Origin: Cyanidioschyzon merolae
Taxonomy: Eukaryota
Assembly (NCBI GenBank): GCA_000091205.1
Contig: AP006502.2
DNA: 64,000 nt
Direction: 5' to 3' (one strand)
Position 1 is the first letter of the stretch. The number at the start of each line of letters is the position of its first letter. Shown here one piece after another: positions 3,139-61,281 of this stretch. The notes under the pieces are model-generated. The model was not told where the DNA came from, made no database searches, and saw only the letters and a list, made by a program, of their open reading frames with translations. Position numbers and translations under genes: made by a program.

Positions 3139-3524
3139 GGTGTCCGTTGTGAACGTTTTAGGGAAAACGGCTTTTCGACAATATGCCGCGTGCGATGCAG
3201 CAGTGCGCGCGCCGCGCTGTTTGGCGTTCGGCGCGATGCCTCCGCGCCCAGCACATTACGGACGTTTTGGTACGCTCATGCACAAGTGCAGCGCGATCAG
3301 GTACACTGCCTTGTCGCACGCTTCCGTGCTACTTTACATGGAGAGATCCGAGCTTCCTGCAGTCAAATAGATTCCCGACGAACGTACGTTTTCACTAACC
3401 AATCTCAGAGATCCATGCATCCTATCCATACCGCATGTGTAGCTTGCCCGTACGCGAAACGCTTCACAGATGGCACTCGCAGCATATCCTCGTGGATCGG
3501 GTTTGCTCGCACTCACATGATGCG

Positions 3525-4166: not shown

Positions 4167-4253
4167 GCGTTTTGCACGCGCGCTCTCAGGCGTTTGAGGA
4201 GCTTATTTCGTAACCAAGACTCCGGGAGAGGCTCCAAGGGGCTGACGTTCTCC

Positions 4254-4294
4254 GCAGTGCAGTGCAGTGCAGTGCAGTGCAGCGCAGCGCTGCG
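4254..4294. repeat. (GCAGT)n pentanucleotide microsatellite, degenerating into (GCAGC)n
   Basis: gcagtgcagtgcagtgcagtgcagtgcagcgcagcgc, about 90 bp upstream of the start of the minus-strand DNL zinc-finger gene. Confidence 0.9.
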
Positions 4295-17696: not shown

Positions 17697-20600
17697 CCAC
17701 ACACGCATCCAGTTCTACTTCATCGGCGGCAACGTCGGCTGCGTTCGACGATCCATCGTGCGCGCTGCAGCGAGCGTCGGCATCCGAAGTAGCACCGCGA
17801 ACTGCGTTGTAGGCGTTCCAGGCTCTGCTTTGTATGCCGTCGTCTCATCGCTTAAAGGCGGGAACCGTTTACGTGCTTGACTAGTGGAAGCGCACGCGAT
17901 CGAATCTGTCACCCAAGCGCTGGGAAGCGTACGCGTGGATGCCAATGCCCGTAACGATGCGCTGATGCCTCGAGCGCCATGCCTGATGCGCTGCCAATGT
18001 CGGTGGCGGGTCAGAACCAATACGAACCGTCCAATGGACGACGCTATGCACAAAATGGAACGCCACGGCATCCGCTGCGCTCCGGCGGCGCCGTTATCGC
18101 TGCATCTATCTGCATGATCGATATGAACGAATCGAGTGCGTTCCACTCCGAGCAGCGAATTCTAGAACACGTGCACCAACACGCCTTTTTGATTTTGTTT
18201 GTTTTCCTCGCATGTACGCAATAAGAGCATCATATCTTGTGCCTAAGAGAATTGTCGCGGAAAGACTCGATGCTGTCGCTGCTATCGTACGAAAATCGGC
18301 CTTAGTTACGCAAGTCAGTGCTTCCACGTTGAGCAAGTAGATCGACGACCCGCGACTAGTCCCTGTGCTGGATGTCGCGCACCCAAAACAGAACGTTTTA
18401 AACGCTTTCTACGAGACTGCATCCAAGTCAATCCAGTTCACCCCGAAGTTCTCGTACAAGTACCACGAAAGAATCTATAGGACATGAAGTTTCTTTACGG
18501 AGCATACGAACGATAATAAGGAGACACGATGCTCAACGAGAAGCGCCCGCCATTACATGAGACCATGGCACCTTGAACAAAATTTCTATGTCTTTCTTAC
18601 TAAACAAGAACGCTGATTACAGGAGAGATGCGTCTTCAGCTCACTCGATGAAATATCGTTGAGCAAATATAGTAGATATGTACATTGATTCTCCAAGAGC
18701 CTTCATGTGCTGTTGGTAAAGAAGAGCTATGCGGGCACGCGGACAACATCATCCCTATCGGGAATTCAATCGCGTGGTCGCCTACAGACTGTTACGCGGT
18801 TAGGATTCTTCAATACCTCAATCTTCCTCGAGGAGCCTCCTGCCTTATTTCTGACCTGCTCACAGACAACGTGGTTTTCCATCACTCAAAAGCGGTAAAG
18901 CAGCTCGCGGTTGAGAAGAAGGCGGAGCTCGACCTCATGGGAGCGAGTCCTCCCTGGTTCAATCCCGTACAAGGCGATTTCTCTGCTGCGAAACGCCGTT
19001 TTTGCGCTTACGGATTCGTAGACGATTCGTTCGCATCGGTGACACGGAAGCGCAAACGGCGCTTCTGTGACAATTCATTCTCTACACTCGCCTTGATGGA
19101 CCTCATCGCGCAGCGGATGTTAGGAGTTCCCCACGCAGGGCTATCCGCAGTACACATTCCGCTGTAGGTTATGGAGCAAAGCTGCGTGCACGGCCATAAT
19201 TGCTCCTCGGCAAACAAGAAGCAGTACTGCTTGACTGGGGCATCACAGCGTTGCCTATACGCTTCCAAGAATCCCTTGGAATGTCGCCGTGCCACCTCGG
19301 CAATCGGCACATAGACAGCGCAGGTTCCAGCAAGTATTCAACGAACCTGAAATACCAGAATCTTTCGCAGGTCGGTCTCGAGCACTTCATGAGGTGCAGC
19401 ATTTGGACACGCCACCTTCATATTGCTGGCAAAGAAAAATCGGGACTGACAGAGCGATGCTCGGGGTGTTCATGGGCGCAAATAACGAGCTGATGGCGAA
19501 TGGGCTCGACGTGCTATCGAGTTCGGAAGCGGAGCCACAGCGAGAGCGAGAGAGTCGCTTTGGATCGTCCAAGCGCTTCGCGCAGCTGTGAACCCCGAAG
19601 CTACCAACGAAGTATGCAAGGCGTAATTGGAATGCCATATCTGCTTTCCTCTGATCTTGATCGACTATGTTATCGCGATGATGGCGCTACAGAGCATGGG
19701 ACACGCCCGACCCGGATCCGTGCGCCCAAGTCTCCACATGCGTCCATTTGATGTGGTCCAGATATGGCCAATCCACACATATGGTACTATTACGAGTGAT
19801 TCTGTGCTGTATATGCTCTTTAATGGCTAACCATGGTCTCCACAAGCAACTATGAAGCATTAGAAAACTCTGTGAAGAATGTTCGCGTAGCTCGTTCAAG
19901 GGATCCCTTTTGCAGCGAATTACATGGAAAGAAATTCTCATGGACGATAGCGATCGATAGAATATCGATTTGCGTTCATGCGGCAAAGATCTGGGCCTGT
20001 ATCGAGCACCGGGACGCATGCTCATTCATTCAAGGTTGACGAATATGGAGACAATGTGGCGGGCGTGAATCCCGAGTCCAAGGGCTCTCGGGCGTCGCCG
20101 TCCCTCCAAGTCAAGAGGACGGTGCCAGAGACCTGAACGGAAAGCAGATGAAGTCGCTCAAATTTTCCAGGACTCGCGATGATTGCGAGTCGGGCGCTTC
20201 AGACTCTGGGAGGCACACAAACAATACAAAGTGCCTGTCCATGGATCCATCTCGACGCTTTGAGCACCACATCGAGCGGAGAAGCACGTTTGTTTAGGCT
20301 TCATTCATGCAGTAGATCAGCGTCCAGATGTCTCACACGAACGATCTTTGGAGAAAGCAGATGAGACTGCGCTGCGCTGCGCTCGCCAATGCTCTCTGTT
20401 CCACGAAGGCAAGAATCGTGCATTCGTAACTCGGTCTGTGAATTGGAAAAGCATGCGAACGCAAAATCGCGTTGTTCCGTAATAGCATGTGGCGTTCTAT
20501 GTGCTGTGATACCCGAGAGCAGCACTCTCACTCGTTCAAGCCGAGCGTTTAACGAGTGCAGGAATCGGTTCCGCACGATTCCCATCCAAGAGTTCCAGAT

Positions 20601-21780
20601 GGCATCCACGCATACCGAACACTTGTGCATGATGAAAAAAGTTGAGAAGAGGAGCGTCTGACAGAGCCGAATGCATGAGATAGTACACGGTAAAATGAAC
20701 GAACTTCAGATGGCGAGGCGATCGAAAACGAGCGGCTTGGTGTATTGTGATTCCACCAGAGATTCTGTGCGCAAGCACTTGTTTTACACCGAATGTTTAA
20801 CGCCTCGATCAAGAGTCCGAAATATGTTTTACTCCAGTAGCGTCCAGTGGGTGTATAGCAGGCAAATTTTAGAGAGAAGCATCTAGAATTGAGAGTGTGC
20901 CAATTGTCGAGGCGATGAAGACTTGCATTAAAAAACTTCGAGGCCACGGGAGAGGCAATTGCATTCTCGTATGGAGCAAGGCAGCGGTATGGTAGGGGTC
21001 GAAATTCCAGAAAGACCGGGACGCTGCGTACACGCACCGTAAAACGCTTCCACGTCCAGTTGGTAAACGATAATCATGTTCCACCTTTACGTATTACCGA
21101 ATATAAACATTCATTGCCCTTACCCGCCGGAAAAACGCGTATCGTATGGTACCGTCGAGAGCGATGCCAAGTCGAGTTTTGTGCAACAGTCTCTGGGCAG
21201 CTTGCGTGACCTGGGCTTGATGTCTTCGATGCGATCGCTTCTGGCCGGTACGCTGTACACCGAATAGTCGAGGCGAGTCGCAGGTGTAGTACGCGGGCTG
21301 CGATTCAGGCTCGGAATCACCAGCGGCGAGAGCAGCGCGTTCTCGTGCCGCCACGCAGCTTCCGTGTCCGGCGGGATGCTGACGTCGCACGGCAAAAGCA
21401 CAGGCGACGTGGCGTCCAGTGGCATGATGCCCGAGAACCGGAAGCATTTATGCCCTCAAAGCTGGTGCAGTTGCCGGGAATCTTCTCCGGAGCAGCAGAT
21501 CATCGCCTATGCTGTAGGCGTGTTAACGAATGCTCACAAATGCCGTCCAGAATATCTCGATGGGCAAGCAATCCACATCATCCTCTGAAAGCGCGGGTCA
21601 CTGCGCAGGATCGTCTCCCAGCAGGATGTCGGCAGCGCACTGCTGTCCTCGCCTCGCTCGAAGCGAGCATTCACCCAGAACCAGGGTATGCAAGGACGTC
21701 GTGACGGACACTGGGCGTTGCGCTGAAGCCTCCGCTGCCGATTGCATCGCGCCCAGCGATGCAATCGGTACCGAACCGCT

Positions 21781-29630: not shown

Positions 29631-30186
29631 GCCACTGGTAGTGCTGGAGGTGGCCTCTTTGATAGCATGCTCACGTGCGCTGGAACGCAACCTGCGCATT
29701 TTAAAATGAAGCGGGACGCGCCTGTCGCTCCATCATCTCTTCGCGTTTTCGCAGCGTCACTGCGGGATGATATGCCCAGCCTACGCAAAAGAGCATGCCC
29801 ATTGATGCCCTGTGCCTGCTCATTTCATATGATACCGAAACAGGCACCAGCGAGTGCTTGTGAATCTCTTCGCGGAGCTTTCCCATTCAGGGTAAAGGAA
29901 AATGGTATTCAGGCCCATGTACGCCGCGACCAATTTCCTATAGTCTTTCACCCCAGTGGTGTTGTGCACCCCCAGGTGCGGTCATCAAATGCGTTTTAGC
30001 GGCTTATAGCAAATGCATTCAAAGTGCGTTCGTTTGAAGAATTAAAAAATTCGAGGGAAAGCCATGGAGATGTAAGTCGGGGATCCCGGAAGGCCGTCAT
30101 CGCCGGCAACCCGGAAAACAACAACCGAAAAATCCCCATCTCGTCGACCACTGAGCGAAAAAGAGCGAAAGGCGAGGAAAAAGTAG

Positions 30187-30603
30187 GGAGATAGTCCAGA
30201 AAAGGGGTTTGCCCCACGGAACGACGCTGAGTCTGTAGTGGCACACAGGGCACGCATTCGAGGAATCCTTGCACTGGTGAATTCAGCCAGCGGCACTGCA
30301 CGCAACGAGTTCATCAACCGAGACTTTGACGCTGCCATCGATATCAGACGATGTGCGGTGCTACAGACGAGACACGAGGACCCGTCATAATCCAGGTTTG
30401 TGCAGCAGCCTCTCAGGCTCGAAGTGTGCCTTGATAAACTGAAACCGACAGCAGGCGGCTGGTCACAAAAGACTCGGAGGCGTCTGCGCGTGCGTACATA
30501 CAATTACCCTCCATGGTCTTGGGTCATTTTTGGTATCATGGACGCTGCATTTATAATCCGGTTATCTTTGATGGCGCCCAACACGACCACGAACATGAAC
30601 TGA
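30187..30603 (+). pseudogene. TnpB/Fanzor-like nuclease C-terminal fragment (copy 2), frameshifted
   Basis: Frame 1 reads ...HRARIRGILALVNSASGTARNEFINRDFDAAIDIRRCAVLQTRHEDPS*. This aligns with copy 1 (...RRAKVRGLLALVSTTIDGKKHMEYVNRDCNAAINIRRCAVME) across the RuvC-III motif. Homology continues downstream in another frame (EVCLDKLKPTAGGWSQKTRRRLRV vs KAELYETKFEAEVRGRFKKTGRRLHV). No RuvC-I/II upstream. Confidence 0.55.
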
Positions 30604-31959: not shown

Positions 31960-33027
31960 TCTCTAAACCAGTTGCACGGTATGCACTGCCTACTCGACGA
32001 CTCGGTGAACTCTAGTCTCCGGCAACGGTTGGCGAGAAACGCTGCGCACGCTTCCGCACGACCAGGACATTGCGGATGTCGTTGAAGAGGCGCGTGCTGT
32101 AGCACTGCATACGCGGAGGCGCTTCAGTAAAGCCTGATGCGAACAGCTCTCGTCCGTTTACGAATAGTGCGGGACTTGTATGAATAGCTTCGGTAGTCCC
32201 TGAGCGGAAAACTTGCGACTTGATTGAGCAGCTGTGTTGTTCTGCGTTCGAAAGGCTCGGAACGGTTGTAAGCACCCGTCAGAGCGCGAGCTGCGACTGA
32301 CAAGCAGGTTGCCTTTGGTTTAGGTATCGACCACCGATGCAAGTGCTGGGGCTTGCACATCTCTGGCAGAGCGCCGAGGCGGTACCTCGGTAGTGTCTAA
32401 CACGTTCGCACTCCGGGGCAGTGGAAACGGCCCTCGTGCGTATCCGTCAGGGCTCTTGCTCTCGCCGCAACTAATGTAATGGAGAGCAGGTTCGAAGACC
32501 ACAAGGGTTTTTGAGTGTTGCAGGGAAGCTGTATTGTCTTCAGAGAAAAAGAAAAATGTCTACGAAGAAATAGAGGCTGGAGCACTTGTAGTTGGTCCGT
32601 CCGCCTTCTTCTGTCCATGGGAACAGAGCTCTACCCTCGTGTCAGGCTAGAATAGAGCACTGGCCTATTTGCGCTGTTCCTACTTTTCGATTTCTCCCTC
32701 AAACTTTTCTAGATGCACAGCTTTGACATTCGAAGCGCACCAGTGAGGGCATACGAATACAAACGTAACTTCAGGATTCTCTGCCGCCTGTTGTGGAGAG
32801 GCTCTACTGACCCTTTGCTGCTGGGATTCATTTTGTCACCGGATTCAAGATGGTTTGCAATGCCCTTGAACAATGGATCGTAAAACAAGCGATATCATTA
32901 TCCTATTTTATCGTGCAAGATTCCACGCTTCGCCATGACTTGCGTATAAAGCTTGCTCAAAGCACGAATTCTTCAAGTTTTCGATCTATGATTTGTTTCA
33001 TCTCATGGGCGGGGCAAATCGCCTTGT

Positions 33028-33579
33028 TTGACTGGTGAGGAAAACAACTCTACGTCGTCCCCAGATGAATATTTCATGCGCTCGTGCCGCATGTTCACTG
33101 AGCTGGTCACGTCGAATGATCGATTCCGCCGAAAAGCAAATCTTCCTCTGTACGTGACCATCGACGAAACGGCATCCGCCAGCACCATCAAGATACCACT
33201 CACAAGATACGCATCACGAGTCTCTCATCTCTTCTGTGTGCCTGAAGAATGGTTAAGGACTCGGACACCAGTCATCGAAACGATCGCTACGAACGGAGCG
33301 TACATCCACTTTCGGAACCGGAAGCGCAGATTGATCGAAATTTCTAGACATGAACTCCAGACTGGATTTTCGTTCCGGTACTTTTTTCCATATGGACGAT
33401 ATGAGGAATCACAAATTCATGATTGCATGGAACAGCGCGCACTTCCATGTGCAACTGACCGAGTAGACGACGTGGGGATCGCCCAGACAAAGCCATTGCT
33501 TGTAAGGTCTAGCGCTGGGCACCAAGACGCAGGAGGGTATCGAGGCGAGGCTTTTGCACCTGGGAACGGTATGTGCTGA
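33028..33579 (+). CDS. ORF encoded inside the inverted repeat; putative N-terminal region of the adjacent Fanzor/TnpB-like gene or a separate unknown protein
   Basis: 183-aa ORF in frame 1, the same frame as the downstream Fanzor-like segments. Ends at TGA where the paralogous copy has TGG and reads on, so this copy looks truncated. No recognisable domain. Confidence 0.4.
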   Translation: MTGEENNSTSSPDEYFMRSCRMFTELVTSNDRFRRKANLPLYVTIDETASASTIKIPLTRYASRVSHLFCVPEEWLRTRTPVIETIATNGAYIHFRNRKRRLIEISRHELQTGFSFRYFFPYGRYEESQIHDCMEQRALPCATDRVDDVGIAQTKPLLVRSSAGHQDAGGYRGEAFAPGNGMC

Positions 33580-33626
33580 GTGCCGAAGCCAGCGTCGACA
33601 CTGTACGGGGCGGTGCTCGCAGGTGG
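33047..33626. repeat. left arm (near-identical core) of a large inverted repeat; partner at 37636-38216
   Basis: Direct comparison of the sequence with the reverse complement of 37636-38216. The encoded peptides differ at 3 of about 175 residues. Homology continues at lower identity (roughly 65-75%) outward to about 32.9 kb and inward to about 33.80 kb. Confidence 0.85.
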
Positions 33627-33753
33627 ACATTTGGTGGGCGTTTGGGATCACCTGAACATAGTCAGGTATCCCGGCTGCGAAAAGCGCACCTGAGCTGCAT
33701 GCAAGGAAGAGGAGCACGGTAATTGAATACTAGATCGTATCTTCCGACTGTTC

Positions 33754-34017
33754 ATGAAAGACATCGACAACAGCGCGAAACTGTACAATCGGTTTCTTTA
33801 CGCTGCCATTAGCATCCTTCGATTCCTGAAGACGGCGCTCGAGAAAAACAAGAGACCGGCGTATTTGCAGCCAGAGATAACAAGAGGAAAAAGAAACTGT
33901 CACAAAACAATCCCACACAAGCTGGCGTCGGTGACAGTGGGAAAAACCAAAAGTTTCGCGTGTACCACCGAATTAGACAGACGACGTCCGTTCCACTCTA
34001 GTCTGACACGGGTCTAG
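33754..34017 (+). CDS. Fanzor/TnpB-like nuclease, N-terminal segment (copy 1), ends at an in-frame TAG (34015-34017)
   Basis: Frame-1 ORF MKDIDNSAKLYNRFLYAAISILRFLKTALEK... Homologous to the inverted remnant MQCVDSCRQQPTRDSNAAIRILRLVPMQ at 37374-37556 (-). Separated from the next segment by a single stop codon. Confidence 0.45.
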   Translation: MKDIDNSAKLYNRFLYAAISILRFLKTALEKNKRPAYLQPEITRGKRNCHKTIPHKLASVTVGKTKSFACTTELDRRRPFHSSLTRV

Positions 34018-34029
34018 TTCGTTGACGCG

Positions 34030-34281
34030 GTGAAGCATGAAGATGAGAAGGAGGCGGATCCTTCGACACAGAAAGTGCATGAGAACGACTTTGTCGTCAG
34101 TGCGGACCCTGGAAAAACGAAAATCGTAACCATCGCAGCATCCAGGCGTGCAGAAGATGGCACTGACGGTAACTTACGTCAGAAAGACATGCGTCTTTTG
34201 ATGTTCTCGAGAGCGAGATACTTCCGAAAATCCGGTATAATGAATGCAAGGAAGAAAATTGTACGTGGAATGCAGGAATGA
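34030..34281 (+). CDS. Fanzor/TnpB-like nuclease, RuvC-I segment (copy 1)
   Basis: Frame 1. FVVSADPGKTKIVTIAA matches the RuvC-I GxDxGxxxxxT motif (catalytic Asp codon at 34105-34107). The frame is lost between 34173 and 34280, where frame 3 takes over. Confidence 0.55.
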   Translation: MKHEDEKEADPSTQKVHENDFVVSADPGKTKIVTIAASRRAEDGTDGNLRQKDMRLLMFSRARYFRKSGIMNARKKIVRGMQE

Positions 34282-35018
34282 AGGACCACCTTGAAGCTTT
34301 GAGCGAGGTGACGAGCCGAGGAGCGGACTTTGAAGCGTTTCGGAAATTCATGGAAGTTCGCGTTGCGCACTGGGATGCGCTGTGGGAGGATTATACCAAG
34401 CCCCGGTGGGCTCGTCTGCGTATGAATCTGTACTGCGGAAAGCAGCGTGCATTTGCGAACTTTTTCAATGAGTTGAGTGCCTTGAAGGAGGATGAAATTC
34501 AGAGGCTCGTAGCAGCGTACGGAGCAGGGCGCTGGAAGAACCGAAAAGGGACTACGCCAGCTCCAACGACCAGAACATACAAAGAGTGCGCACGGCGTTT
34601 CGTTACGATAGCTTTAGATGAGTCCCGAACGTCCTATACACACCATGAACTCGGGTGTGCGCTTCAGAGAGTGGACATGGAAAAGCGCCAGCGGAACCCT
34701 GAGGATATGAAAAAGTACGGACTGCTGACGGAGGAGCAAATGGAAAGGCGAGCGAAAGTTCGTGGACTACTCGCATTAGTAAGTACAACTATTGACGGCA
34801 AGAAACATATGGAGTATGTGAATCGTGACTGTAATGCCGCTATCAATATAAGGAGATGTGCGGTGATGGAGGAAAGACCTCCGGCGTTGACACGAGAGAA
34901 TTTTATGGGGCAACCTCTGAAAGCCGAACTATATGAGACAAAATTTGAAGCAGAAGTTCGTGGCCGGTTCAAAAAGACGGGTAGGCGTCTGCACGTCAGT
35001 CGGAGACGTCTAGTCTAG
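34278..35018 (+). CDS. Fanzor/TnpB-like nuclease, RuvC-II / degenerate zinc finger / RuvC-III segment (copy 1)
   Basis: 246-aa ORF. VTIALDESRTSYTHHELGC is the RuvC-II Glu (34619-34621) followed by a degenerate TSxxCxxC finger. EYVNRDCNAAINIRRCAVM is the hallmark RuvC-III motif (Asp at 34827-34829). Basic tail RFKKTGRRLHVSRRRLV. Confidence 0.7.
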   Translation: MKDHLEALSEVTSRGADFEAFRKFMEVRVAHWDALWEDYTKPRWARLRMNLYCGKQRAFANFFNELSALKEDEIQRLVAAYGAGRWKNRKGTTPAPTTRTYKECARRFVTIALDESRTSYTHHELGCALQRVDMEKRQRNPEDMKKYGLLTEEQMERRAKVRGLLALVSTTIDGKKHMEYVNRDCNAAINIRRCAVMEERPPALTRENFMGQPLKAELYETKFEAEVRGRFKKTGRRLHVSRRRLV

Positions 35019-35068
35019 GGCGCGTCGCTCGCCACTACTGTACACGGTCGGCATCGTTCGACTCTAGA

Positions 35069-36097
35069 ATGGCGTTCAGCGGAAGTTCGCCTGAGCGAGA
35101 GCGCTCTGGGAGTTGGATACCGAATGGATCCGAGTCCTTTTTCGGGAGTGAAGGATCAGAGGCACCTGAGGGCGCTGAAGGTCTGGGCACCGTATACACA
35201 CCGGTGCTCAATGCGGCCCAACGAGCGAAACTAGAAGCGCTTTCGGAGCTGGTGCGCTCTGCCGCCGAACTAAATCTCACGCCGACCGAAAAGGCCTGGA
35301 TGGATGAGGCGTGCCTATCCCGGTTTCTACGGGCGCGACGATATCACGTTCAAAAAGCGTTCCGGCAGCTGCACGAAACGATTGTGTGGCGGCGCAGTTT
35401 CGGGGTAGAGCAGTTGATGCTCGATCCCGAGCTCGCGGACGTCAAGCGCCAGTCTGAGACCGGCAAGTTGTATGTGCACGGTAAAGACCGGTTTGGTCGA
35501 CCAGCAGTCTTCATGAAACCGCGACTGCAGAACACCAGTGAGCGGAAAACGGCTCACGAACAAATGAGGCAGCTTGTGTACACGCTCGAACGAGCTGTTG
35601 CGGAGATGATGCCGCCAGTCGAGAAAATCTGCCTCGTGATTGACTTTCCCGGTTATTCGTTGCGAAATGCACCGTCTATTAAAGTACAGCGACAGACGTT
35701 GAAGATTCTCCAAGACTACTATCCGGAGCGCTTAGGATTCGCTGTTTGCATTGATGCACCGGCAATTTTCTGGACATTTTTTGAGATTGTCAAACCATTC
35801 ATCGATCGGCGAACATCCGCAAAAATACAGTTTTGCAGTCGAAAGGCGAAAGAAGGCACCAAACAAAATATGCGGACGCTGATGAATCAATTATTTGACC
35901 CAGAGGCGCTGGAAATCGAACTCGGCGGGCGAAGCGCTTGGCGATACTCCAATGAGGAATACTTTCGCGAACGAGTGCTTCCTGAGTATTTGAGAATTAA
36001 ATCCTATCCAGAGCGCGTGGAAATGATTCCTTGTGCTGAGGAGGACGTTAATAATACACAGGACGTTTTCTACGACAGCATGAGCTGCCTCGATTGA
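35069..36097 (+). CDS. Sec14-like phosphatidylinositol/phosphatidylcholine transfer protein (CRAL-TRIO domain)
   Basis: 342-aa ORF. CRAL-TRIO N-terminal helices (ACLSRFLRARRYHVQKAFRQLHETIVWRRSFG) and lipid-binding domain (GKDRFGRPAVFMKPR...ICLVIDFPGYSLRNAP...ERLGFAVCIDAPAIFWTFFEIVKPFIDRRTSAKIQF). Confidence 0.8.
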   Translation: MAFSGSSPERERSGSWIPNGSESFFGSEGSEAPEGAEGLGTVYTPVLNAAQRAKLEALSELVRSAAELNLTPTEKAWMDEACLSRFLRARRYHVQKAFRQLHETIVWRRSFGVEQLMLDPELADVKRQSETGKLYVHGKDRFGRPAVFMKPRLQNTSERKTAHEQMRQLVYTLERAVAEMMPPVEKICLVIDFPGYSLRNAPSIKVQRQTLKILQDYYPERLGFAVCIDAPAIFWTFFEIVKPFIDRRTSAKIQFCSRKAKEGTKQNMRTLMNQLFDPEALEIELGGRSAWRYSNEEYFRERVLPEYLRIKSYPERVEMIPCAEEDVNNTQDVFYDSMSCLD

Positions 36098-37556: not shown

Positions 37557-38256
37557 GGAGCCGCAATGCGCTGTTCGCAGTGCAGACGCACCTGACTACG
37601 GTCAGCTGTTCCCATTTGTGCACGAGCACACCTGCTCCACCTGCGAGCACCGCCCCGTACAGTGTCGACGCTGGCTTCGGCACCCAGCACATACCGTTCC
37701 CAGGTGCAAAAGCCTCGCCTCGATACCCTCCTGCGTCTTGGTGCCCAGCGCTATACCTTACAAGCAATGGCTTTGTCTGGGCGATCCCCACGGCGTCTAC
37801 TCGGTCTGTTGCACATGCAAGTGCGCGCTGTTCCATGCAATCATGAATTTGTGATTCCTCATATCGTCCATATGGAAAAAAGTACCGGAACGAAAATCCA
37901 GTCTGGAGTTCATGTCTAGAAATTTCGATCAGTCTGCGCTTCCGGTTCCGAAAGTGGATGTACGCTCCGTTCGTAGCGATCGTTTCGATGACTGGTGTCC
38001 GAGTCCTTAACCATTCTTCAGGCACACAGAAGAGATGAGAGACTCGTGATGCATATCTTGTGAGTGGTATCTTGATGGTGCTGGCGGATGCCGTTTCGTC
38101 GATGGTCACGTACAGCGGAAGATTTGCTTTTCGGCGGAATCGATCATTCGACGTGACCAGCTCAGTGAACATGCGGCACGAGCGCATGAAATATTCATCT
38201 GGGGACGACGTAGAGTCTTGCTCGTCGTCAATGCAGTAGAGCGATTTGCCGTACAA
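37543..38256 (-). CDS. paralogue of the repeat-encoded ORF 33028-33579, longer (237 aa) because TGG replaces the TGA of the other copy
   Basis: About 98% identical over 175 aa to ORF 33028-33579. Reads through 47 more residues, then is frameshifted relative to the downstream homologous segment. Confidence 0.4.
   Translation of the reverse strand: MYGKSLYCIDDEQDSTSSPDEYFMRSCRMFTELVTSNDRFRRKANLPLYVTIDETASASTIKIPLTRYASRVSHLFCVPEEWLRTRTPVIETIATNGAYIHFRNRKRRLIEISRHELQTGFSFRYFFPYGRYEESQIHDCMEQRALACATDRVDAVGIAQTKPLLVRYSAGHQDAGGYRGEAFAPGNGMCWVPKPASTLYGAVLAGGAGVLVHKWEQLTVVRCVCTANSALRLHANR
37636..38216. repeat. right arm (near-identical core) of the large inverted repeat; partner at 33047-33626
   Basis: Reverse complement matches 33047-33626 with very few mismatches. 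Flanks diverge on both sides. Confidence 0.85.
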
Positions 38257-49199: not shown

Positions 49200-49900
49200 A
49201 TGGTGTCTGCCTCGCCTTGGTGTATTCAACATCGCGCCATGTGTTCTTCCTTGCAAGCGATGTCACGGACTGTAAACCACGGCTCAACGGAAAACGTATG
49301 ACGGCCCACAGACGGTTCGCGGATGTGTGTATACCTTGAGTGTCTGAACCGCCGTGCATTCACGACAAAAGTTGTGTGAAATTCGCTGCACCGTGTCATT
49401 TGCAAGCGCGTGGCTCTTAGTCGGCGGCTTTGCGCTCTTGCACAAAGGACGCAACGCCGACGCCCATGCCGGACGCCGCATGGACAGTCAACCGCTAATC
49501 GCCCAGGCTGCTGCGGGCATTTCAGACCGGACCCCGAAGCGTCCGGTTTGTACTCATGCTCGTATTGCCGCATGCATGTCTGTCATAGCACAGGACGCCG
49601 AAATGAGGTTCTATGTGATGTTCAGATGAACGCATCTGTTTCTGCAAGTTGCCTGGGAAGTGAGTGACGCTCTGGCGATCGCGACGATGGTTTACATCTG
49701 GATGGCGCTGGATGAGATCAGCGGGCGACGGCAAACCGATGAGGACGATGTCCTCTATTCTAGGTATCCGATGGAGCTTGATCAATCGCCGCAGCGCTCG
49801 AAAGGCGTGTACAGGAACACGCTTAATAGGCTCGTGCGCCACAGACACCATCCACGAGAGGTGCGCAGGCCAGTTTTCCTGGAAAGGCCGAACGAAATGG

Positions 49901-49953
<53 letters not shown>

Positions 49954-49966
49954 ATCATCTATGGTG
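49901..49966. repeat. (TGC/GCT)n trinucleotide microsatellite (about 18 units) followed by (GAT)4
   Basis: tgctgctgctg...ctgatgatgatgatc. Would encode poly-Q on the minus strand (ORF 49522-50034) or poly-L/poly-C on the plus strand. Confidence 0.9.
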
Positions 49967-51172
49967 CGCATGCTCGCCAGGTGTCGTGTGTTATCTGGGG
50001 CTTCGTCGCTCTCGATTGCCCTTTGCCGGCTCAAGTAGCCAAGAATTCCTTGTGGAACGACATGCTTCCATGAGATATCCGCGTTTTGCGCTAGCCGCGC
50101 TGCTGTTCTTGTGCTACCGATGCCTCTACATTAGACACTGACCCCAGTGCAATCATACTGGTGGAGTCGGCGCCTCTTGTAGATTCGCCGGTGATGATGC
50201 GCCTTGATTACTTCCGGGCTCGGCATTCTTTGAGGTCGCCGCATGCTGCGAAGTGCTGCAATCATGCGGTCATTTTTCGAGTACTTGGACGAGCACATGT
50301 CTTGCGCCAGAGAGATCCGCTCGACCCGGTACCGATATTCTTGTAAACTTACCATCGTTTGATGCAGCTCCGCACTGTCACCTCAGACTACATAAGCGAT
50401 CGAGGGCGCGGCATCCGACCGAAAAGTCTATGCCAAACGGCGGCATGCTCTTCTTCGCCTCTGGTATCCGCGGCATGACCGTTATCGTGTCTGAGTCGCT
50501 TCGAGCGCACATACGACACAGCTTGCTCGCGAGCGTTTCCAATTCAAACCAAGGCTTTCGACTCGGCTCAGACTAGCTGTCTGTGTCGTACTCGCGACCG
50601 GTCTTGTGCCGGCGCCGCACGGCGTCTCGCCGCTGTTGCTTAAACTCCTTCATCAGCTGCGGCCGCTGCTCCTCCCACTGCTGACGGCGAACGGTCTCCC
50701 CTTCAGTGAGGTAAAACGTCGACCCTAGACCGGCGTTCTCCGCTGGAACCCGCGAAACACTGCTGGCAGCGGTGGGGCGCTCCACATCGGATCTGCGCAC
50801 AACTTTTGGCACGCGTTGCAGCGGAAGTTGCTGCCTGGGTTTGCGACGACTGTGCTCTTGAGCTACTGCTTTTGGTTGTTGAGGCGCGCCCGAAAACCAG
50901 GCGCCAGACGGCGGCTCTAAAACACTGCACCCCACGACAGGCTTTGCGTCTTCCAAACCCGAATCGAACATATTTTCCTCTACAGGTTCTTTGTCGAGTT
51001 AAGTTCAAATCGGGTGTTCTTCGCGACTGCCGGTCTGCATTCAGTAGAAACGAGTGCAGCTCGCAGACCACTGCTCTCGAGACGCTGAACGCCAAAAAAA
51101 TCGCTTCTCCGCTAGTGTCGTGAATCGCAGCCCAATATGACACCGACGCACGCACTCTATCTATAATGCACG

Positions 51173-53037: not shown

Positions 53038-53769
53038 GCCCTGCGCCTCGACAGCGTCCACTTTCTGCCATAGCTACACCTATGTCCTAGAAATACATCG
53101 ATCAAGGACGCGCGTCGTGTGGTATTCCTCAGTGCCGCAACCACGGAATCCCGCAGTGCAAGTCCCGTTATCGCTAACGAGATGAAGCGTCGCATCGTAC
53201 CGCGAAGGAGCATCTGACGCTCGATGCGCTGTATCGCGCTCGCGAATATAGCTGTCGCTCATTGCGATAGCTGTCTGTGAGACCATTACGGGCTCAAGTC
53301 GAAGCGTAAAAAGAAGCCAGTGCCCTCAATCTACATCGCTTTCAGGACCTACTATGACTCTGCTGCCTCGCCACAAACGAGCAAACGCTGCAGCGAGCGT
53401 CCATCGGTCCGTACTGCTCAGATGCACGCGCACAAACAGCGACATGGTTCGCTATCCCAGTCTATATATATGTCAGATCTGAAGGTGGTGTCCCCGATGG
53501 TTCAAGTGACGTTCAGGTTCGTGATTCTCTCCACTTATCGATCGATAAAATGCAGCGGGATCGCTGGCGCGCGTACCGGCACCCGTGTCGGAAACAGTGT
53601 CGAGAATTTTATCGATCTCCTCGCAGCATTGGATTCTTCCAACAAATTAATCTGTTTACAAATCCCATATTTGATCGTAGTTGCAACGAAATCGACAAAG
53701 TTGTTCGCACCTGTTCCACCAGCGCTAAAGCGACGCGACACAGCAACGCGGAAATCATCAGTGGAGCGA

Positions 53770-54165
53770 ACAATGCCTCGCACCCATGGGCGGCAAATAC
53801 AGACACTCACGCGCAGACGCTTCCCAGACTTTTTAGACCGGCAGTCCGGTATCGGCGGCAGCTCTTGCGTCTACAAGTTGAGCATCAGAGGCTGCACTAC
53901 AAAGTCGGATCGCGCCTGCTCCTCGGGTCTCGTCCTCAGCACCGCACATCGTATGATATTGGTGGCGGCGTTCAAGTCTCGGTTCACGAACTCCATGTCT
54001 GCATCGACGCTGGTTGAACGCACCATGGCGAGGAATCGTCGAACTCGTGCCCTCTGTGCCAATTGGTGCACTGTCAGCTCTGCATGCTTTTCTATCGCCG
54101 AAGCGCTGCGCGGCTTTCGCTGCATGTCGTCCTTCTGAAACGTACACCCCAGGTCATCGCTTAAT
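53770..54165 (-). pseudogene. TnpB/Fanzor-like nuclease C-terminal fragment (copy 3), truncated upstream and frameshifted near the tail
   Basis: Minus-strand frame reads KLSDDLGCTFQKDDMQRKPRSASAIEKHAELTVHQLAQRARVRRFLAMVRSTSVDADMEFVNRDLNAATNIIRCAVLRTRPEEQARSDFVVQPLMLNL*. The tail SKKSGKRLRVS continues in another frame. An upstream stop lies inside the AT-rich run ttaatttttaaaa at about 54170. Confidence 0.55.
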
Positions 54166-56522
54166 TTTTAAAATGCGCGCACCTGCTTATGCCCTTAGGT
54201 GAGGAGCCTCCCACTGGGAGAAGGACCTGTGGAAGAGAGACGACAAACGCCCTGGTGTCACTGGACGGTGCGCTTCAGTGATTTACCCAGTCGAGCGATC
54301 ATTGCGTTTCATGAGAGAAAACACACTTCTTCGATGGCGACGGACCACGTAGCACGCGGCGCAATGAAAAGCAGCTCTACGCTGACGGAATCCGCATATG
54401 CTCGAACGCAAGGGGAATGGTGAAATCCTATGTTGTGTAATAGAAAAACGTCGCCAGACGTCAGGGAAAAGTCTTCAATGATTCGACAAATTGGATGGTA
54501 CTGTTCGACGAGCCTTCTCCACGAGAGAATTGAAGCTGCCAAATGAATCCACTGGAGCTCCAACAGATGATGATGTGGGCGTTCTCCTCGAGTTCGATCG
54601 AACGGACGACGGATTCGTTTCATTTCGAATACCCGTGCGCGCTCCGAGAGTTTCGTCCCAAGCAAGTCACATTGATTGAAAACAACAAACAGATGATCCG
54701 GTGGTTTCTATAGATCGCAACGCTCCAGGAACTCTTTGCGCGCTTTTTCGGTGCAAGATGGTCGTGCGTGAACTAGGTGTTTATGTTTGTGACTCTCTCC
54801 TGGTGTTCTCAGGATCACACGAGCAAGCTGTTGTGAAGCAGAGACGCTTGTGTTGGATACTGTCCTCGCTTTTGCGCCACATAAAATGACCAACTGGTCG
54901 TTTTCCTACGATTGACAGCAAGTGCGCTTGAAGAATATCGGCTTTTGGCACGGAGCGCATATCCTTTTTCCTTTCAGTGTCCTGCAATGATCTGAGCAAT
55001 GTGTTATGACTGACCCGACGGGCGAATACAGTGCTCTTTGCGCTATTCATTAAAGAATCTATCCTATAGACAATTCGTCTACGATCTATACGGTATATGG
55101 CCCCGGCAAGTCGATCTCCTTCCATACACTGCAGCATGACGTACAACAGCATCGATTTGAAAGACGATACCGCTACCCAGCGCGTGAGATCATGAACCCG
55201 CCCAGAGCCTGTCCACGGCATCGCACGCTCGACGACGCTAGGCAGCGTTCGGGGAGTTGAGGCGGTGGCTTCGGTCAGCTCTACTTGCTCCCTTTTCGCC
55301 GTTCGTCGGTAAACGAGCGGGGAAGCAGCGCGTATTCGCCACTAGTCCCGCAGGGATCAACAGCAGAACGCCCTATCCGCGCGTCCTCGCTTGCTGCTGT
55401 GATCGACTGGAGCGGGCATAGGTGCCAGAGCCGTTGACGCGCAGTTCAGCGTTCGGTGTGCTTGTGGGATAACAGAGACGTCGTTGGCGCACTCGAGCCG
55501 ACCATGTCCGTGCCTGCAGCACCCAGAGGCCCAGCGATTAGTGATGATATTGAAATCGTCGCACATCCTTGTAATGAACGCATTGACGATTTAATAAATG
55601 TTCTATTCGATGACCCGCGGAGTCTGGGAGAGCCCTGGCGGGCACTGCGCTCGTGTCTGCGGAGGTACGGACTATTCCCGAGGCGAGAGCTCTGGAAACC
55701 CCAGCCTCATAAGCTTCGAGAAAAGCGGTATTCCGGTGAGCCAGATCCGGTGGACGCAGGCATCGGTGATACGTCACACGGCGCCGGACCTGAAACCCAC
55801 GAATAAGCGCGTTGGCCATCGGGGCGGCTCGCCTCTGACACAGGAGCGCGACAATGCGAGCATCATTTCCATGCGACAAACTCGCCCGCAACGTCCTCAG
55901 CATGATCTTGCATGCGAAACCTGTTGTTTCTCCTCAGCTTGTATGACTGATCGAGAAGGTTGCTTCCGAACCTGCCGCGGCGCAGAAAGCGTACGATGCG
56001 CTGCCAATTTCGAGCACCGACTTTGAGATGAGCTCGGGAGCGTCCGACCAGAGCATCTCATGGAGCCTTGAACGTGCTCGATGATCTCGTGCATGGGCCT
56101 TATCCATCACATCGGCAGGTGTGGCTGTTTCATGTACTGTTGCGTTGCGCGGCATCGCTGGACATCTTCATGCGCCGTAGACGCTCTTCCCGATGACGAC
56201 CATCAGGGTAACAGCATTACACTGGCGCCGGCAAGTGGGTGGCCAGGCCTCGAACACCCCAAAATGGAAACAATCATGTGTGGGCTCCGATGGGGACTTG
56301 GCGTCGCCAAGCGGCGTTCACAGGAACCCCGCCGATGCTCCCCCTGAAAAATGGTCCCTCATACCGCACAGACCAGGATGGCGTTATGGCGAACGCCAGC
56401 GCGCATGCGGGACGCTCGCGCCACTGCCACGTACTCGTTGTTGTGTAGTACCAGCGGTAGCGCTTCGAAGGTCGCATCACCAGGCCGAAACTGGTGACAC
56501 CCTATCCCGCAGCGCGGTATGA

Positions 56523-59346: not shown

Positions 59347-59371
59347 TTAGAGTCTCAGTAGACGCAATGGG

Positions 59372-59407
<36 letters not shown>

Positions 59408-61281
59408 GGCTCTGAGATTCCCCGTATGCGCGGGCGCTTCCGAATGATAGGGCTGCGGGTGTCAAACGTGACGCCAAACTCGCGTTCGAAATCCTTTTTC
59501 ACCTCGATTACCTCATCTATGGATCGCGCGAGTCCCAGGTGCTGCATCATCCTGCCGAAACGCTGTTCATCGCGAATGGACCCACGAGGGTGCTCATTTC
59601 GCAGATCTTCGTCAGAGGGGCCTCCCGAAGAAGCTGCTGCATTCGCATCTTGCCGCGTACTCGTTTCCAGGGCACTCGCAGCGCTCTGGCTAGCCGCTCC
59701 ACTTCCGAGATGGACTCTCGCGGAAAACTTGGACCCGGGAACAGCTGCGCCGGTTCCTCCCGCGCCAAGCCGATGCTCTTTCTGGTTAGCATTGTCTGAT
59801 ACGAGCATCCGACCCGATTCTAAATAAAAAAGTTGCTTATCGGGATTTTCCGGGCCCGTGACGGCCATGGTTTCAGTACTCACACTACTGAATCCCAAGA
59901 TTTTGCGATTTCCAGGATCACTGATAGCGTTCGGTAACCGCTTGACGAGTTGCACGCTCTCGAACACGCGTTTGAGCAGAGTTGTGTTACGCAGCCATCG
60001 TGCGATAGCCTCTACCCGCTCCAAGGTCTCGTTGGGATCAACGCATGTCTTAAAGTACTTTGCTGCGTTCACGAACACAGGGACACGATCGGGTCCGAGG
60101 CCGTTCAGCGCAGCCATGTACTTGGACCGGGACACCAAAGCATGTTGCTCTTCGGGAACAGAGACTTTGACGCCACCAGGAAACCCGAACGGCGGCAACA
60201 CAGGTGTTCCAGCGCCTGCTCGGCTGGAGAAGAAAGCGCTCAACTCATTCTGGTAGAAAATAGGATCACATTTCAGAATATGTAGGTACCAGTTGTGGAA
60301 GCGAGTAGAAACATCCGTGCCACAGCGACTACACCAGCGATACGCTGCATGGCTTGACGGATGGAGACCCAACAAGATATCACCCTCGGGTTCCGGCAGA
60401 TGAAGGACACCGGAGCGGATATTGCCCGGCTCTACCGCAGTGGCGCGAGCAGCGGCGATGCCAGCCGGTGTCTGCAAGTTCGGAACCAGTTGCGCAAGTC
60501 GCAAACTCGCCTGATCAACCTGGCGGTCTGTACCAGTGACCGCTGCTGGAAAGTGCAGCAGACCGGTCTGGGCAGCGGCAGCAGCAGCTGCTGCTGCCGC
60601 CGCCGTGCTCGTTCGACGGTTACCAGAACCACGGCCGGTCATGTCGGCAAACGTGCCGTCCATAATGAAGGGTCGAGCACCAACCAGCTGTCTCTGTACA
60701 TAATTGTTCCCTAACCTCTTGGGTTCGCTGGCCTGAAACTTGCTCAGATCATAGGCTGGATCCCCGGGGTGGTAGGCCGCTAGCTTTTCAGCGAGGCTGA
60801 GCTCGAGGTCCGCTCGCGTTCGCCCTCGAGGAGCGTCATAGACCATAGCAATGACACGCAAAACATCTCGTTGCGTTTGCTTAATTTCTTCAAAGGTAAA
60901 CTGCGGCAGTGGTTTGATGCCAAACTCGAGCAACTTCTGCTCCCGTTCCGCGTCGTTGGCGTAGTTCCGGCGAACGGGTCCGCCGCCCGAGTGCGCGGCA
61001 GCACCAGCCACAGTCGAGCGCGCCGAGGTAATCGCCCCAAACCCAGGCGCTCGCCACACTGGCACGTTTTCCGGTTTTGAAGAAGTGTCTGAGCGGGTAT
61101 CTCCTCCTTGCAATCCTCTCGCCGAAGACGAGACTGGAGGTAGGGTCGCCATACGCGCCTCGGAGTCAAGCGTGCAGCGCGACAACAATTGCGAAAGGAG
61201 TTTGGAAGGCGCCCTCGGGGCATGTGCAGGGCCCTGTCCAAAATGTGTGGTATATCCTATTTGGCATCTGAAAAAAGTCAC
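59347..61281 (-). CDS. hypothetical protein ending in a poly-Q tract encoded by a (CAG)n microsatellite
   Basis: 644-aa ORF. Ala/Gln-rich low-complexity segments. C-terminus QQQQQQQQQQQQRPLRLLRL. No domain recognised by eye. Confidence 0.45.
59373..59406. repeat. (GCT)n trinucleotide microsatellite (about 11 units), poly-Q coding on the minus strand
   Basis: gctgctgctgctgctgctgctgctgctgctgctg, inside the 3' end of the minus-strand ORF 59347-61281. Confidence 0.9.

Follow-up and report, generated by a model that had tools for sequence, protein, structure and literature searches.

Three decayed CMe-1A-type Fanzor1 copies of Cyanidioschyzon merolae share a single-frame C-terminal motif, and a separate 3'-terminal hairpin marks the subfamily of one of them

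The window, meaning the whole 64-kb stretch of Cyanidioschyzon merolae DNA analyzed here, contains three incomplete copies of a Fanzor1 transposon. It has a GC content of 54.7%, and its genes are intron poor. Copy 1 (W1; plus strand, 34019..35085, right boundary approximate) is a 5'-truncated and frameshifted CMe-1A Fanzor1, which was delimited by homology to 80 related loci that is confined to positions 34019 to ~35077. It retains only the last ~1.06 kb of an element of ~2.5 to 3.2 kb, and the N-terminal half of the protein is absent. In tblastn alignments, residues 87 to 177 lie at 33973-34260 and residues 179 to 429 at 34263-35015 in a different frame, with the frameshift at about 34261. 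The C-terminal part of the Fanzor1 protein is encoded by a 246-aa ORF (34278..35018, plus strand), which ends with a TAG stop codon at 35016-35018 and includes the RuvC-II glutamate (LDESRT, 34620-34622) and the RuvC-III aspartate (NRDCNAAINI, 34827-34829). The RuvC-I aspartate codon (ADPGKT, 34105..34107, plus strand) is in a frame different from that of the rest of the ORF, so that all residues of the D-E-D triad are present in a split RuvC domain of which the first part is out of frame. Copy 2 (W2; plus strand, 29940..30545, boundaries approximate) is an internally deleted, nonautonomous derivative of ~560 to 600 bp, in which a 5' region with the start codon is joined to the final ~290 nt of the ORF and followed by a ~55-nt tail of its own, and it has in-frame stops at 30184 and 30388. 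Copy 3 (W3; minus strand, 53755..54330, boundaries approximate, traced in part through the inverted repeat I2) belongs to the same short subfamily and has in-frame stops at 54170 and 53873. All three copies are dead, and none of them retains an intact, expressible Fanzor1 ORF.

Judged by their sequences, these elements are CMe-1A, a Fanzor1 family of C. merolae, or a very close relative of it. CMe-1A and its protein, CMe-1, have been published previously (Bao & Jurka 2013, Mob DNA 4:12, PMC3627910), with the classification of the element left as unknown. Positions 34779-35074 of copy 1 show 83% identity to the last 299 nt of the published CMe-1A consensus, and the consensus C-terminal peptide is identical to that of CMe-1, a 734-aa protein whose C terminus is given as ...GGRSKKTGRRLHVSWRRFV / ...NRDFNAAINIRRCAVLEKRPPELTRENFVGQPLKVELYEKKLEAVVGGRSKKTGRRLHVSWRRFV, with the same tail (Bao & Jurka supplement, PMC3627910). 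A profile built from 48 diverse relatives (alignment A4) matches the PDB sequences of PpFz1 (9cf0, 1.7e-21), SpuFz1 (8gkh, 1.2e-13), and GtFz1 (9cer, 4.8e-7), and the catalytic residues do not vary in that alignment (D in DPG, E in VDEFRT, and D in NRDxNAA). A single-sequence search of the PDB gave no matches, the Pfam search gave nothing beyond a weak Cas12f1-like_TNB match, and relatives were not found in IMG/VR. The AlphaFold2 model of P0003 is unusable (pLDDT 37). The 5' regions of the elements fall into several groups because TE-N2_CMe adjoins the core in either orientation. The element family is largely known already, and its occurrence here is an ordinary observation.

An earlier note on this DNA described a motif downstream of RuvC-III that is common to the three copies, which is real. 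The sequences quoted for it are present in the window, and its degenerate form, GGTYNMAAAAGWCNNGGWRGCGTCTGCRCGT, has 3 matches in the whole 64 kb (copy 1, 34966-34996, plus strand; copy 2, 30461-30491, plus strand; copy 3, 53839-53809, minus strand) versus 0 expected from 100 dinucleotide shuffles. In a three-way alignment of the copies, the motif and RuvC-III are the two conserved blocks. The motif was also said to be conserved across a frame change, and this part does not hold. The codon phase of the motif is that of the upstream RuvC-III motif in all three copies, no frameshift was found between the two in copies 2 and 3, and each of these copies gives one tblastn high-scoring pair running through the motif. 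What interrupts each ORF is a stop codon in the reading frame (TAA at 30388 in copy 2, TAG at 53873 in copy 3) rather than a frameshift. Translated in the single frame anchored on the motif, copy 1 reads ...YVNRDCNAAINI...GQPLKAELYETKFEAEVRGRFKKTGRRLHVSRRRLV*, copy 2 reads ...FINRDFDAAIDIRRCAVLQTRHEDPS*SRFVQQPLRLEVCLDKLKPTAGGWSQKTRRRLRV..., and copy 3 reads ...FVNRDLNAATNIIRCAVLRTRPEEQARSDFVVQPLMLNL*TQELPPIPDCRSKKSGKRLRVS... (asterisks, stop codons), all three leading directly back into RuvC-III. The peptides KKTGRRLHV, KTRRRLRV, and KKSGKRLRVS, of which the latter two had been presented as readings in a shifted frame, are instead one homologous peptide in one phase, K-[T/S]-[G/R]-[R/K]-R-L-[H/R]-V, and in copy 1, codons 34971-34997 specify K-K-T-G-R-R-L-H-V, which is the family's conserved basic motif at the C terminus. 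Without a change of frame, the argument that the nucleotides are conserved regardless of frame falls away. A splice donor after the motif (GTGAGT/GTCAGT) was considered and rejected, as the published protein is encoded by a single exon and the ORF runs on for 6 to 9 codons in both subfamilies.

The motif (31 to 34 nt) is accordingly the coding sequence of the conserved C-terminal basic motif K-K-x-G-R-R-L-H/R-V. That it remains conspicuous after decay would reflect the ancestral ORF, whose final ~290 nt had their two strongest constraints at this motif and at RuvC-III. The consensuses of the two subfamilies share 91% identity over 46 nt of the motif region, and four of their five differences are at synonymous third positions, a small sample for which a hand estimate assuming a one-third chance per position gives a p value of ≈0.045. 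In addition, distant Fanzor1 relatives with 30 to 40% identity end in [VI]-G-[KR]-x-[ILV]-[KR]. These comparisons suggest protein constraint, which is the better-supported explanation of the motif, short of proof. In SpuFz1, R631 is located in the C-terminal RuvC loop (Xu 2024, PMC11423790), and by analogy the basic tail could make contact with nucleic acid close to the RuvC site.

That the motif has no function, being shared by ancestry and surviving by chance in decaying pseudogenes, would agree with the death of all three window copies. It would also agree with the distribution of variable motif sites among them, which by inspection has no third-position bias (6, 3, and 4 sites at codon positions 1, 2, and 3), and with the conservation of the untranslated region (0.57 to 0.73), which is not above that of third codon positions (0.75). 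We nevertheless regard it as highly improbable, and it is already disfavored by three observations: the motif block is also conserved between the consensuses of many-copy subfamilies, the peptide pattern recurs in distant Fanzor1 lineages, and the hairpin potential described below is retained over about six unrelated tail sequences.

A second alternative is the proposal of the earlier note narrowed to copy-1-type elements: constraint on the motif would act mainly through the RNA, in which the motif would supply the 5' arm of the initial omegaRNA stem-loop (GCGUCU.CA/UG.AGACG). The small palindromes pointed out in copy 1 are present (AGACG at 34975-34979 with CGTCT at 34986-34990, and AGACGTCT at 35004-35011), but AGACG-loop-CGTCT was rejected as a structure; its right arm is invariant and its left arm variable (GACG, GTCT, GCCT, GGCG, AACT, and GACC). 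[quoted passage not shown] The stem can pair in 85 to 87% of the alignment cells, and a G-to-C change in two relatives (L031 and L032) makes it perfect. Across 51 sequences, the motif codons CGT and CTG are nearly invariant, third positions included (4 and 6 differences), and the ORF loses its codon periodicity within its final ~140 nt. On the other hand, pairing is no better than the column-shuffled expectation (88.5% versus 87.9%), and compensatory change is essentially lacking; core pairs are lost without any compensation, with C:G disrupted in 21 of 50 to 59 sequences. Minimum free energy folds of the motif part vary among relatives, copies 2 and 3 retain the motif without the partner arm, the differences between subfamilies are synonymous, and the peptide motif is kept in relatives with 30 to 40% identity. 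Constraint mainly at the RNA level is therefore rather unlikely. Two further helices, CAGUAG..GUGGC with GCCAC..CUACUG over a long range and the GGCG/CGCC stem, can form and were rejected for want of compensatory change, and an all-against-all scan of column pairs was abandoned as too permissive owing to G·U pairs.

In the larger alignments, no covariation was found in helices that use the motif (50 to 82 sequences), and RNAalifold gave no consensus structure on the 50-sequence MAFFT alignment; a covariation signal appears only in the separate downstream hairpin and in a model-fitted alignment. This is compatible with amino acid constraint in a single frame, which comes close to explaining the motif fully. 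It falls somewhat short because the synonymous fraction within the family, which is 0.60 for the ORF body, drops to 0.37 in the motif and to 0.22 over the final six codons, so protein constraint there is modest and only intermediate, and a nucleotide-level contribution to the conservation of the motif may exist.

The same basic tail, RFKKTGRRLHVSRRR, had also been proposed as a C-terminal nuclear localization signal. It is basic and conserved, and Fanzors need nuclear import (Jiang 2023), but the tested Fanzor nuclear localization signals are N-terminal in 21 of 22 cases (Jiang 2023), and full-length members of the present family have a far stronger basic N terminus (MKKQ...ARKKQKT...KKNRKGEALRRRRHERR in the relative L005 and KKRKT...KTKKQKREARRQRLQERR in CMe-1). 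Moreover, G-[KR]-x-[ILV]-[KR] contains an invariant glycine and a hydrophobic position, features that would suit a structural or contact role better than recognition by importin. Judging from these sequence features, a C-terminal localization signal is improbable, and a role of the tail within the protein, as outlined above, would be the likelier of the two.

In copy-1-type elements, conservation crosses the stop codon and extends ~60 to 70 nt beyond it (35019-~35085). Pairwise identity after the stop is 0.73, 0.67, and 0.57 and then falls to 0.29 and 0.21 beyond the element, with the collapse at ~35077-35085, where the flanks begin to differ among copies. The first part of this tail is a conserved noncoding segment (35019..35045, plus strand) with a GGCG...CGCC box at 35019-35033, in which no covariation was found, and a CACTACTGTACAC box at 35033-35045. 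The second part (35046..35085, plus strand), at the element's right edge, is the region of the terminal hairpin, which is degraded in copy 1; the end of the published consensus is equivalent to position 35074. Tails of the family fold at -15.6 kcal/mol versus -10.2 kcal/mol in flank controls (p = 1.6e-7, a value that overstates independence, as do the other p values, because the copies are mutually related). The sense strand of the hairpin is more stable than the antisense strand in 34 of 39 tails, and 22% of its pairs are G·U. Thirteen of 16 pairs have changed on both sides, and none of 500 shuffles reaches the score of these compensatory changes, a result that applies to the model-fitted alignment only; on the plain MAFFT seed alignment, hairpin covariation is not significant. 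The 120 nt of copy 1 itself give a z score of -0.54, versus -1.85 to -5.75 in six relatives. The tails of copies 2 and 3 differ from that of copy 1 and are unstructured: no consistent fold was found in tails of their type (z scores of -0.7 to +1.7), and a covariance model of the copy-1-type 3' module does not match these copies. Rfam 15 gave no match at the gathering threshold in the whole window and none at E ≤ 1 in 34850-35150. The terminal hairpin is thus the only structured-RNA signal found; it is separate from the motif and belongs to the copy-1 subfamily only.

The proposal that a guide omegaRNA lies near the 3' end of the nuclease ORF is compatible with the downstream tail and hairpin of copy-1-type elements and does not extend to copies 2 and 3, from which the module is absent. 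The omegaRNAs of Fanzor systems come from the 3' end and the right end of the element, and that of GtFz1 overlaps 17 C-terminal codons (Saito 2023, PMC10432273; Jiang 2023). Fz1 omegaRNAs contain a 7-bp SL1 followed by variable stem-loops (Xu 2024, PMC11423790). The module lies at the boundary of the repeat unit, the known position of Fanzor1 omegaRNAs, which makes it compatible with the omegaRNA idea. The tail and hairpin are most likely the 3' part of an omegaRNA scaffold that would end at the right end of the element, with the first ~15 to 21 nt of flanking DNA as the probable guide; the transcript may also take in the motif, which is located about 110 nt upstream of the right end and would then form the 5' side of the 7-bp stem, although nothing requires it. 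Transcription of the CMe-1A 3' module, RNA binding, the guide, and the function of the protein's basic tail are what we infer. As a whole, the locus is probably best explained by dead CMe-1A copies in which the motif codes for a C-terminal basic tail, together with a separate omegaRNA-like 3' module in copy-1-type elements.

The conserved tail and hairpin could instead be a cis signal for transposition, such as a hairpin for recognition or termination at the 3' end, rather than a guide RNA scaffold; models for this are one-ended rolling-circle replication of the Helitron or IS91-like kind, the right ends of IS200/IS605 elements, and the 3' stem-loops used by LINE reverse transcriptases. The hairpin is placed at the very end of the unit, 5' truncation with preservation of the 3' end (21 hits at about 8 loci) is more frequent than 3' truncation (3 hits at 1 locus), and internally deleted derivatives keep the 3' ~300 nt. 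The Helitron2-borne Fanzor1 elements of Chlamydomonas show the same 3' bias and 3' hairpins (Bao & Jurka, PMC3627910). Against this, the elements examined have no CTRR 3' end, 5' TC, terminal inverted repeats (TIRs), or RepHel or TnpA gene in or beside them, and no poly(A) or simple-repeat tail. A subterminal 3' hairpin is combined with CTRR-3' in Helitron1 and with asymmetric TIRs and a 5' hairpin in Helitron2 elements, and autonomous copies carry RepHel. In the present family a 3' hairpin is present, but the ends are ...GTTGATGGTGC, ...GGCTTGTCCAT, and similar sequences, not CTRR. A TIR search found no inverted repeat of the right end, the genes called in the one neighborhood examined include neither a helicase nor a Rep gene, and the only candidate target site duplication (TSD) of copy 1 is a single 6-mer common to both junctions, which is within chance. 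The strong sense-strand G·U bias favors RNA or a single strand over a duplex palindrome and fits an RNA template as well as an omegaRNA. Both roles coexist in TnpB right ends, so the two explanations are not exclusive. We consider a transposition signal in place of a scaffold possible but unlikely, and the omegaRNA scaffold remains our preferred reading of the 3' module.

A combination of the two is a more speculative and quite unlikely proposal: the CMe-1A 3' module would be a working omegaRNA with an unusually long (10 to 16 bp), fast-evolving, G·U-rich guide-proximal hairpin that extends past the published consensus and also serves as the 3'-end signal for one-ended, 3'-primed copying. If true, such a dual-role hairpin would explain both the bias toward 5' truncation and the absence of TIRs and TSDs, and in this thermoacidophilic red alga a single structure would link guide RNA biogenesis with transposition. 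Some CMe-1A copies still encode an intact, presumably heat-tolerant Fanzor1, and considering the many copies (~150 in the genome) and the hot acidic habitat, an active CMe-1 ribonucleoprotein could be a thermotolerant compact editor. No omegaRNA has been described for CMe-1A, and the tail and sense-specific hairpin delimit a candidate scaffold of ~100 nt; the published consensus apparently ends ~10 to 15 nt before the actual right end, a difference relevant to guide design. The result as a whole is mainly a correction of the record, as the apparent frame-independent conservation is not real and the family was already published, and it holds nothing surprising for Fanzor1 biology.

The family resembles the published CMe-1A (Bao & Jurka 2013) in its length of ~3 kb, ~80% identity among copies, high copy number, lack of TIRs, and TE-N2_CMe module on the 5' side. 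That paper (PMC3627910) predates the discovery of RNA guidance and proposed no omegaRNA, and its consensus stops inside the terminal hairpin, before the end of homology at the subfamily level. The ~560-bp internally deleted subfamily of copies 2 and 3 is something other than the TE-N2_CMe described there. The Helitron2-borne CRe-1, -2, and -3 of Chlamydomonas (Bao & Jurka 2013) are similar in having a 3'-terminal hairpin, frequent 5' truncation, and internal deletions with intact 3' ends, whereas the present elements have no Helitron termini and no asymmetric TIR that is demonstrably part of the Fanzor core. With the structurally solved systems GtFz1, SpuFz1, and PpFz1 (PMC10432273, PMC11423790), the family shares protein homology, and its RNA would likewise be expected from the 3' and right end in the sense orientation; the SpuFz1 element bears TIRs and CMe-1A does not. 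The 7-bp SL1 and the variable stem-loops that precede the guide in Fz1 omegaRNAs have putative counterparts in CMe-1A, where a long hairpin at the terminus follows the possible stem of 7 bp and the small GGCG/CGCC stem; of these, only the terminal hairpin has comparative support, and the window copies are nonfunctional. The ISDra2 TnpB omegaRNA (reRNA) of the IS200/IS605 group differs from the CMe-1A case, which has a eukaryotic host, no TnpA, a far longer protein (734 aa), and no matching Rfam family. The likeness would lie in a guide RNA that shares sequence with the 3' end of the nuclease ORF and stops at the right end of the element, with its guide drawn from the flanking DNA.

The copy 1 ORF (246 amino acids) has 274 close relatives among metagenome protein sets, and 80 related loci were recovered, including L001 to L004, which are the same locus as copy 1 at ~98% identity. 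Among 1.84 billion representative proteins searched, 1244 relatives were found, mostly of 600 to 700 amino acids and 30 to 45% identity, and a profile of 48 relatives, with invariant RuvC D, E, and D residues, matches the solved Fanzor1 proteins PpFz1 (1.7e-21), SpuFz1 (1.2e-13), and GtFz1 (4.8e-7). The CMe-1A transposon family of Cyanidioschyzon merolae comprises ~150 copies, each ~80% identical to a 3169-bp consensus, lacks TIRs, was described with its TSDs left undetermined, and encodes a Fanzor1 of 734 aa, CMe-1, whose C terminus is ...GGRSKKTGRRLHVSWRRFV; the consensus DNA ends in ...AAAAAGACTGGGAGGCGTCTGCACGTCAGTTGGAGACGTTTTGTCTAGGGCGCGTTTGCCGCCACTACTGTACACCGCTGGCGGCAGCGTTTTTCTTTTGAAAGGCG (Bao & Jurka 2013, PMC3627910). 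Copy 1 is 83% identical to this 3' end at 34779-35074, and the GC content (54.7%) and long intron-free genes of the window are both in keeping with C. merolae. Both the element family and its protein had been described before; the novelty here is limited to the candidate omegaRNA and a right end that reaches slightly further.

Copy 1 is 5' truncated, because its homology to the family runs only from 34019 to ~35077, and it carries a frameshift near 34261. Copies 2 (~29940-30545, +) and 3 (~53755-54330, -) are members of a ~560-bp subfamily in which the 5' region of the element, including the start codon, is fused to the 3'-terminal ~290 nt of the ORF; further members lie at L015:6478-6962, L066:4062-3513, L054:8086-7529, L007:6388-5870, and L016:7396-7784. 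Two more degenerate Fanzor1-like fragments, both without the motif shared by copies 1 to 3, are present at 20365-20658 (+) and 39564-39409 (-), with tblastn extents of 20094-20781 and 39750-39221.

Directly upstream of RuvC-I, many family members carry 2 to 6 tandem 75-nt (25-aa) units, KHEExKEAxPATQEVxDNDFVV (L005:~3440-3800, proteins P0033 and P0112, and window 34019-34097), and the family homology of copy 1 starts exactly at one such unit. Head-to-head pairs of 5'-truncated copies joined near this region are palindromic and recurrent (L018, L020/L021, L029, L030, and L035; e.g., L018:2525-3448 [-] and 3472-4520 [+]). The TE-N2_CMe module, which makes up positions 1 to ~637 of the published CMe-1A consensus, adjoins the Fanzor core in either orientation (L078, L077, L036, L010, L041, and L057 versus L006, L016, L063, and L052), and the GACAAAACGT at its terminus reappears in reverse complement, as ACGTTTTGTC, just 5' of the Fanzor stop codon (L007:1442-1465 versus 4723-4746). 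Copy 1 and a CRAL/TRIO gene are flanked by a 615-nt inverted repeat of 96% identity (33013-33627 and 37636-38250), which may represent either a further repeat family or a segmental rearrangement (inversion or duplication); each arm has an ORF of ~183 to 214 aa with no Pfam match, and weakly related sequence (67%) adjoins Fanzor copies in L009, L013, and L014. Long GCT/CAG trinucleotide runs at 49881-49967, 59352-59420, and 60566-60613 are probably coding poly-Ala, poly-Ser, or poly-Gln tracts.

The shared 31-nt motif downstream of RuvC-III, searched as GGTYNMAAAAGWCNNGGWRGCGTCTGCRCGT, has three matches in the window, at 34966-34996 (+), 30461-30491 (+), and 53839-53809 (-), against a chance expectation of zero. 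In a three-way alignment, the copies are homologous over ~260 to 350 nt; conservation is strong in two blocks, RuvC-III and the motif, and homology stops directly after ...GCGTCTGCRCGT. The earlier note had read the motif as kept across a frame change and as a candidate omegaRNA scaffold and/or nuclear localization signal (NLS) tail. The motif is indeed present, as are the small palindromes that the note gives for copy 1, but the frame change is not: when each copy was translated in one frame anchored on the motif, that frame ran back into the RuvC-III signature in all three (YVNRDCNAAINI, FINRDFDAAIDI, and FVNRDLNAATNI in copies 1, 2, and 3). With a full-length relative as the tblastn query, copies 2 and 3 each gave one ungapped-frame HSP through the motif, and their ORFs are interrupted by in-frame stops only (TAA at 30388 and TAG at 53873). 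The motif peptides KKTGRRLHV, QKTRRRLRV, and KKSGKRLRV are homologous and in phase.

Amino acid constraint explains the motif better, though not conclusively. The copy-1-type and copy-2/3-type consensus sequences share 91% identity across 46 nt (GGxGGCCGGTCxAAAAAGACxGGGAGGCGTCTGCxCGTxAGT), with four of five differences at synonymous third positions and the fifth changing His to Arg; Fanzor1 relatives from many sources, at only 30 to 40% identity, end in ...RP..L.R...[VI]-G-[KR]-x-[ILV]-[KR]-[KRC]. Compensatory change was absent from every helix that could be drawn with the motif (the AGACG/CGTCT palindrome of the earlier note, a GCGUCU.CA/UG.AGACG stem, and a long-range helix); pairs that varied were simply broken. 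Together, these three observations favor protein constraint. Within the family, the synonymous share of single-base codon differences is 0.60 in the ORF body, compared with 0.37 in the motif and 0.22 in the final six codons, and no codon periodicity remains across the ORF's last ~140 nt. Protein constraint on the tail is therefore only moderate, and the tail may also have a role at the nucleotide level. In the SpuFz1 structure, R631 in the RuvC C-terminal loop occupies the groove of the DNA that is loaded on the active site (Xu 2024), which suggests by analogy a possible function for the CMe-1 tail. That the basic tail is an NLS is less likely, as the Fanzor NLSs tested so far are N-terminal (Jiang 2023) and the N terminus of CMe-1A family proteins is much more basic.

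In copy-1-type elements, conservation runs unbroken across the stop codon (35016-35018), with pairwise identities after it of 0.73, 0.67, and 0.57 and then background values of 0.29 and 0.21 at ~35077-35085. Within this segment lie a GGCG...CGCC box, a CACTACTGTACAC box that is well conserved (35033-45), and, 3' of the latter, a 10- to 16-bp hairpin whose sequence varies by subfamily, e.g., CGTTGGCGCCGTTCGA-CTT-TCGAACGGCGTTGATG, GCCGGCGGCAGCGTTTTTTC-TTTT-GAAAGGCGTTCGCTGTCGG, and GGCCGGCGAG...CTCGCCGGC. Folding of the 45-nt tails gives -15.6 kcal/mol, versus -10.2 for equal-GC flank controls (p = 1.6e-7), and a long stem is retained in roughly six tail types that are unrelated to one another. 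In 34 of 39 tails the fold is more stable on the sense than on the antisense strand (-15.6 versus -9.7 kcal/mol), and G·U accounts for 22% of pairs, which argues for an RNA, or a single strand, in the orientation of the ORF. In an alignment fitted to a covariance model (built from 23 copies, with 82 matches), 13 of 16 hairpin pairs changed on both sides and the covariation score exceeded all 500 shuffles, with no covariation in helices 1 and 2, which adjoin the motif; on the plain MAFFT seed alignment, hairpin covariation was not significant. Whole-module folds of six relatives gave z scores of -1.85 to -5.75, and the 120 nt of copy 1 itself gave -0.54; its hairpin is decayed. Within the window the model matches copy 1 only (34969-35088), not copies 2 or 3, whose element type has its own conserved ~55-nt tail 3' of the motif, unrelated to that of copy 1 and without consistent structure on folding. 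No Rfam family matched. The terminal hairpin (family GAACGGCG, copy 1 GAATGGCG) includes the putative start (first ATG, 35069-35071) of the CRAL/TRIO ORF that follows, and at L082:8764-8786 the following gene call, for an RF-1-type release factor, likewise has its putative start within the Fanzor tail.

A serious alternative, compatible with an omegaRNA role, is that the 3' module is a cis signal for transposition. Internally deleted derivatives retain the 3' ~300 nt, and, by locus, 5'-truncated copies that keep an intact 3' end outnumber 3'-truncated ones about eightfold (21 hits at ~8 loci versus 3 hits at 1 locus, all loci compared with L031:1912-4815), a bias like that of Helitron2-borne Fanzor1 elements (Bao & Jurka 2013, PMC3627910); however, no Helitron termini, TIRs, poly(A) tail, or transposase gene turned up in or beside the elements examined. 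The omegaRNA claim itself holds in part: an omegaRNA-like module probably exists, but downstream of the motif and only in copy-1-type elements, and the reasons first offered are not what supports it. Fanzor1 omegaRNA transcripts arise from the element's 3' inverted repeat or right end. The copy-1-type module matches them in position, orientation, and boundary behavior, and 35019-~35085 is therefore considered, by analogy, most likely to act as an omegaRNA scaffold; the scaffold would end at the right end of the element, and the flanking DNA would serve as the guide. Among known systems, in the Fz1 omegaRNA a 7-bp SL1 and, after it, variable stem-loops make up the scaffold that precedes the guide (Xu 2024), the GtFz1 omegaRNA overlaps 17 C-terminal codons (Saito 2023), and conservation can reach into the ORF in Fanzors (Jiang 2023).
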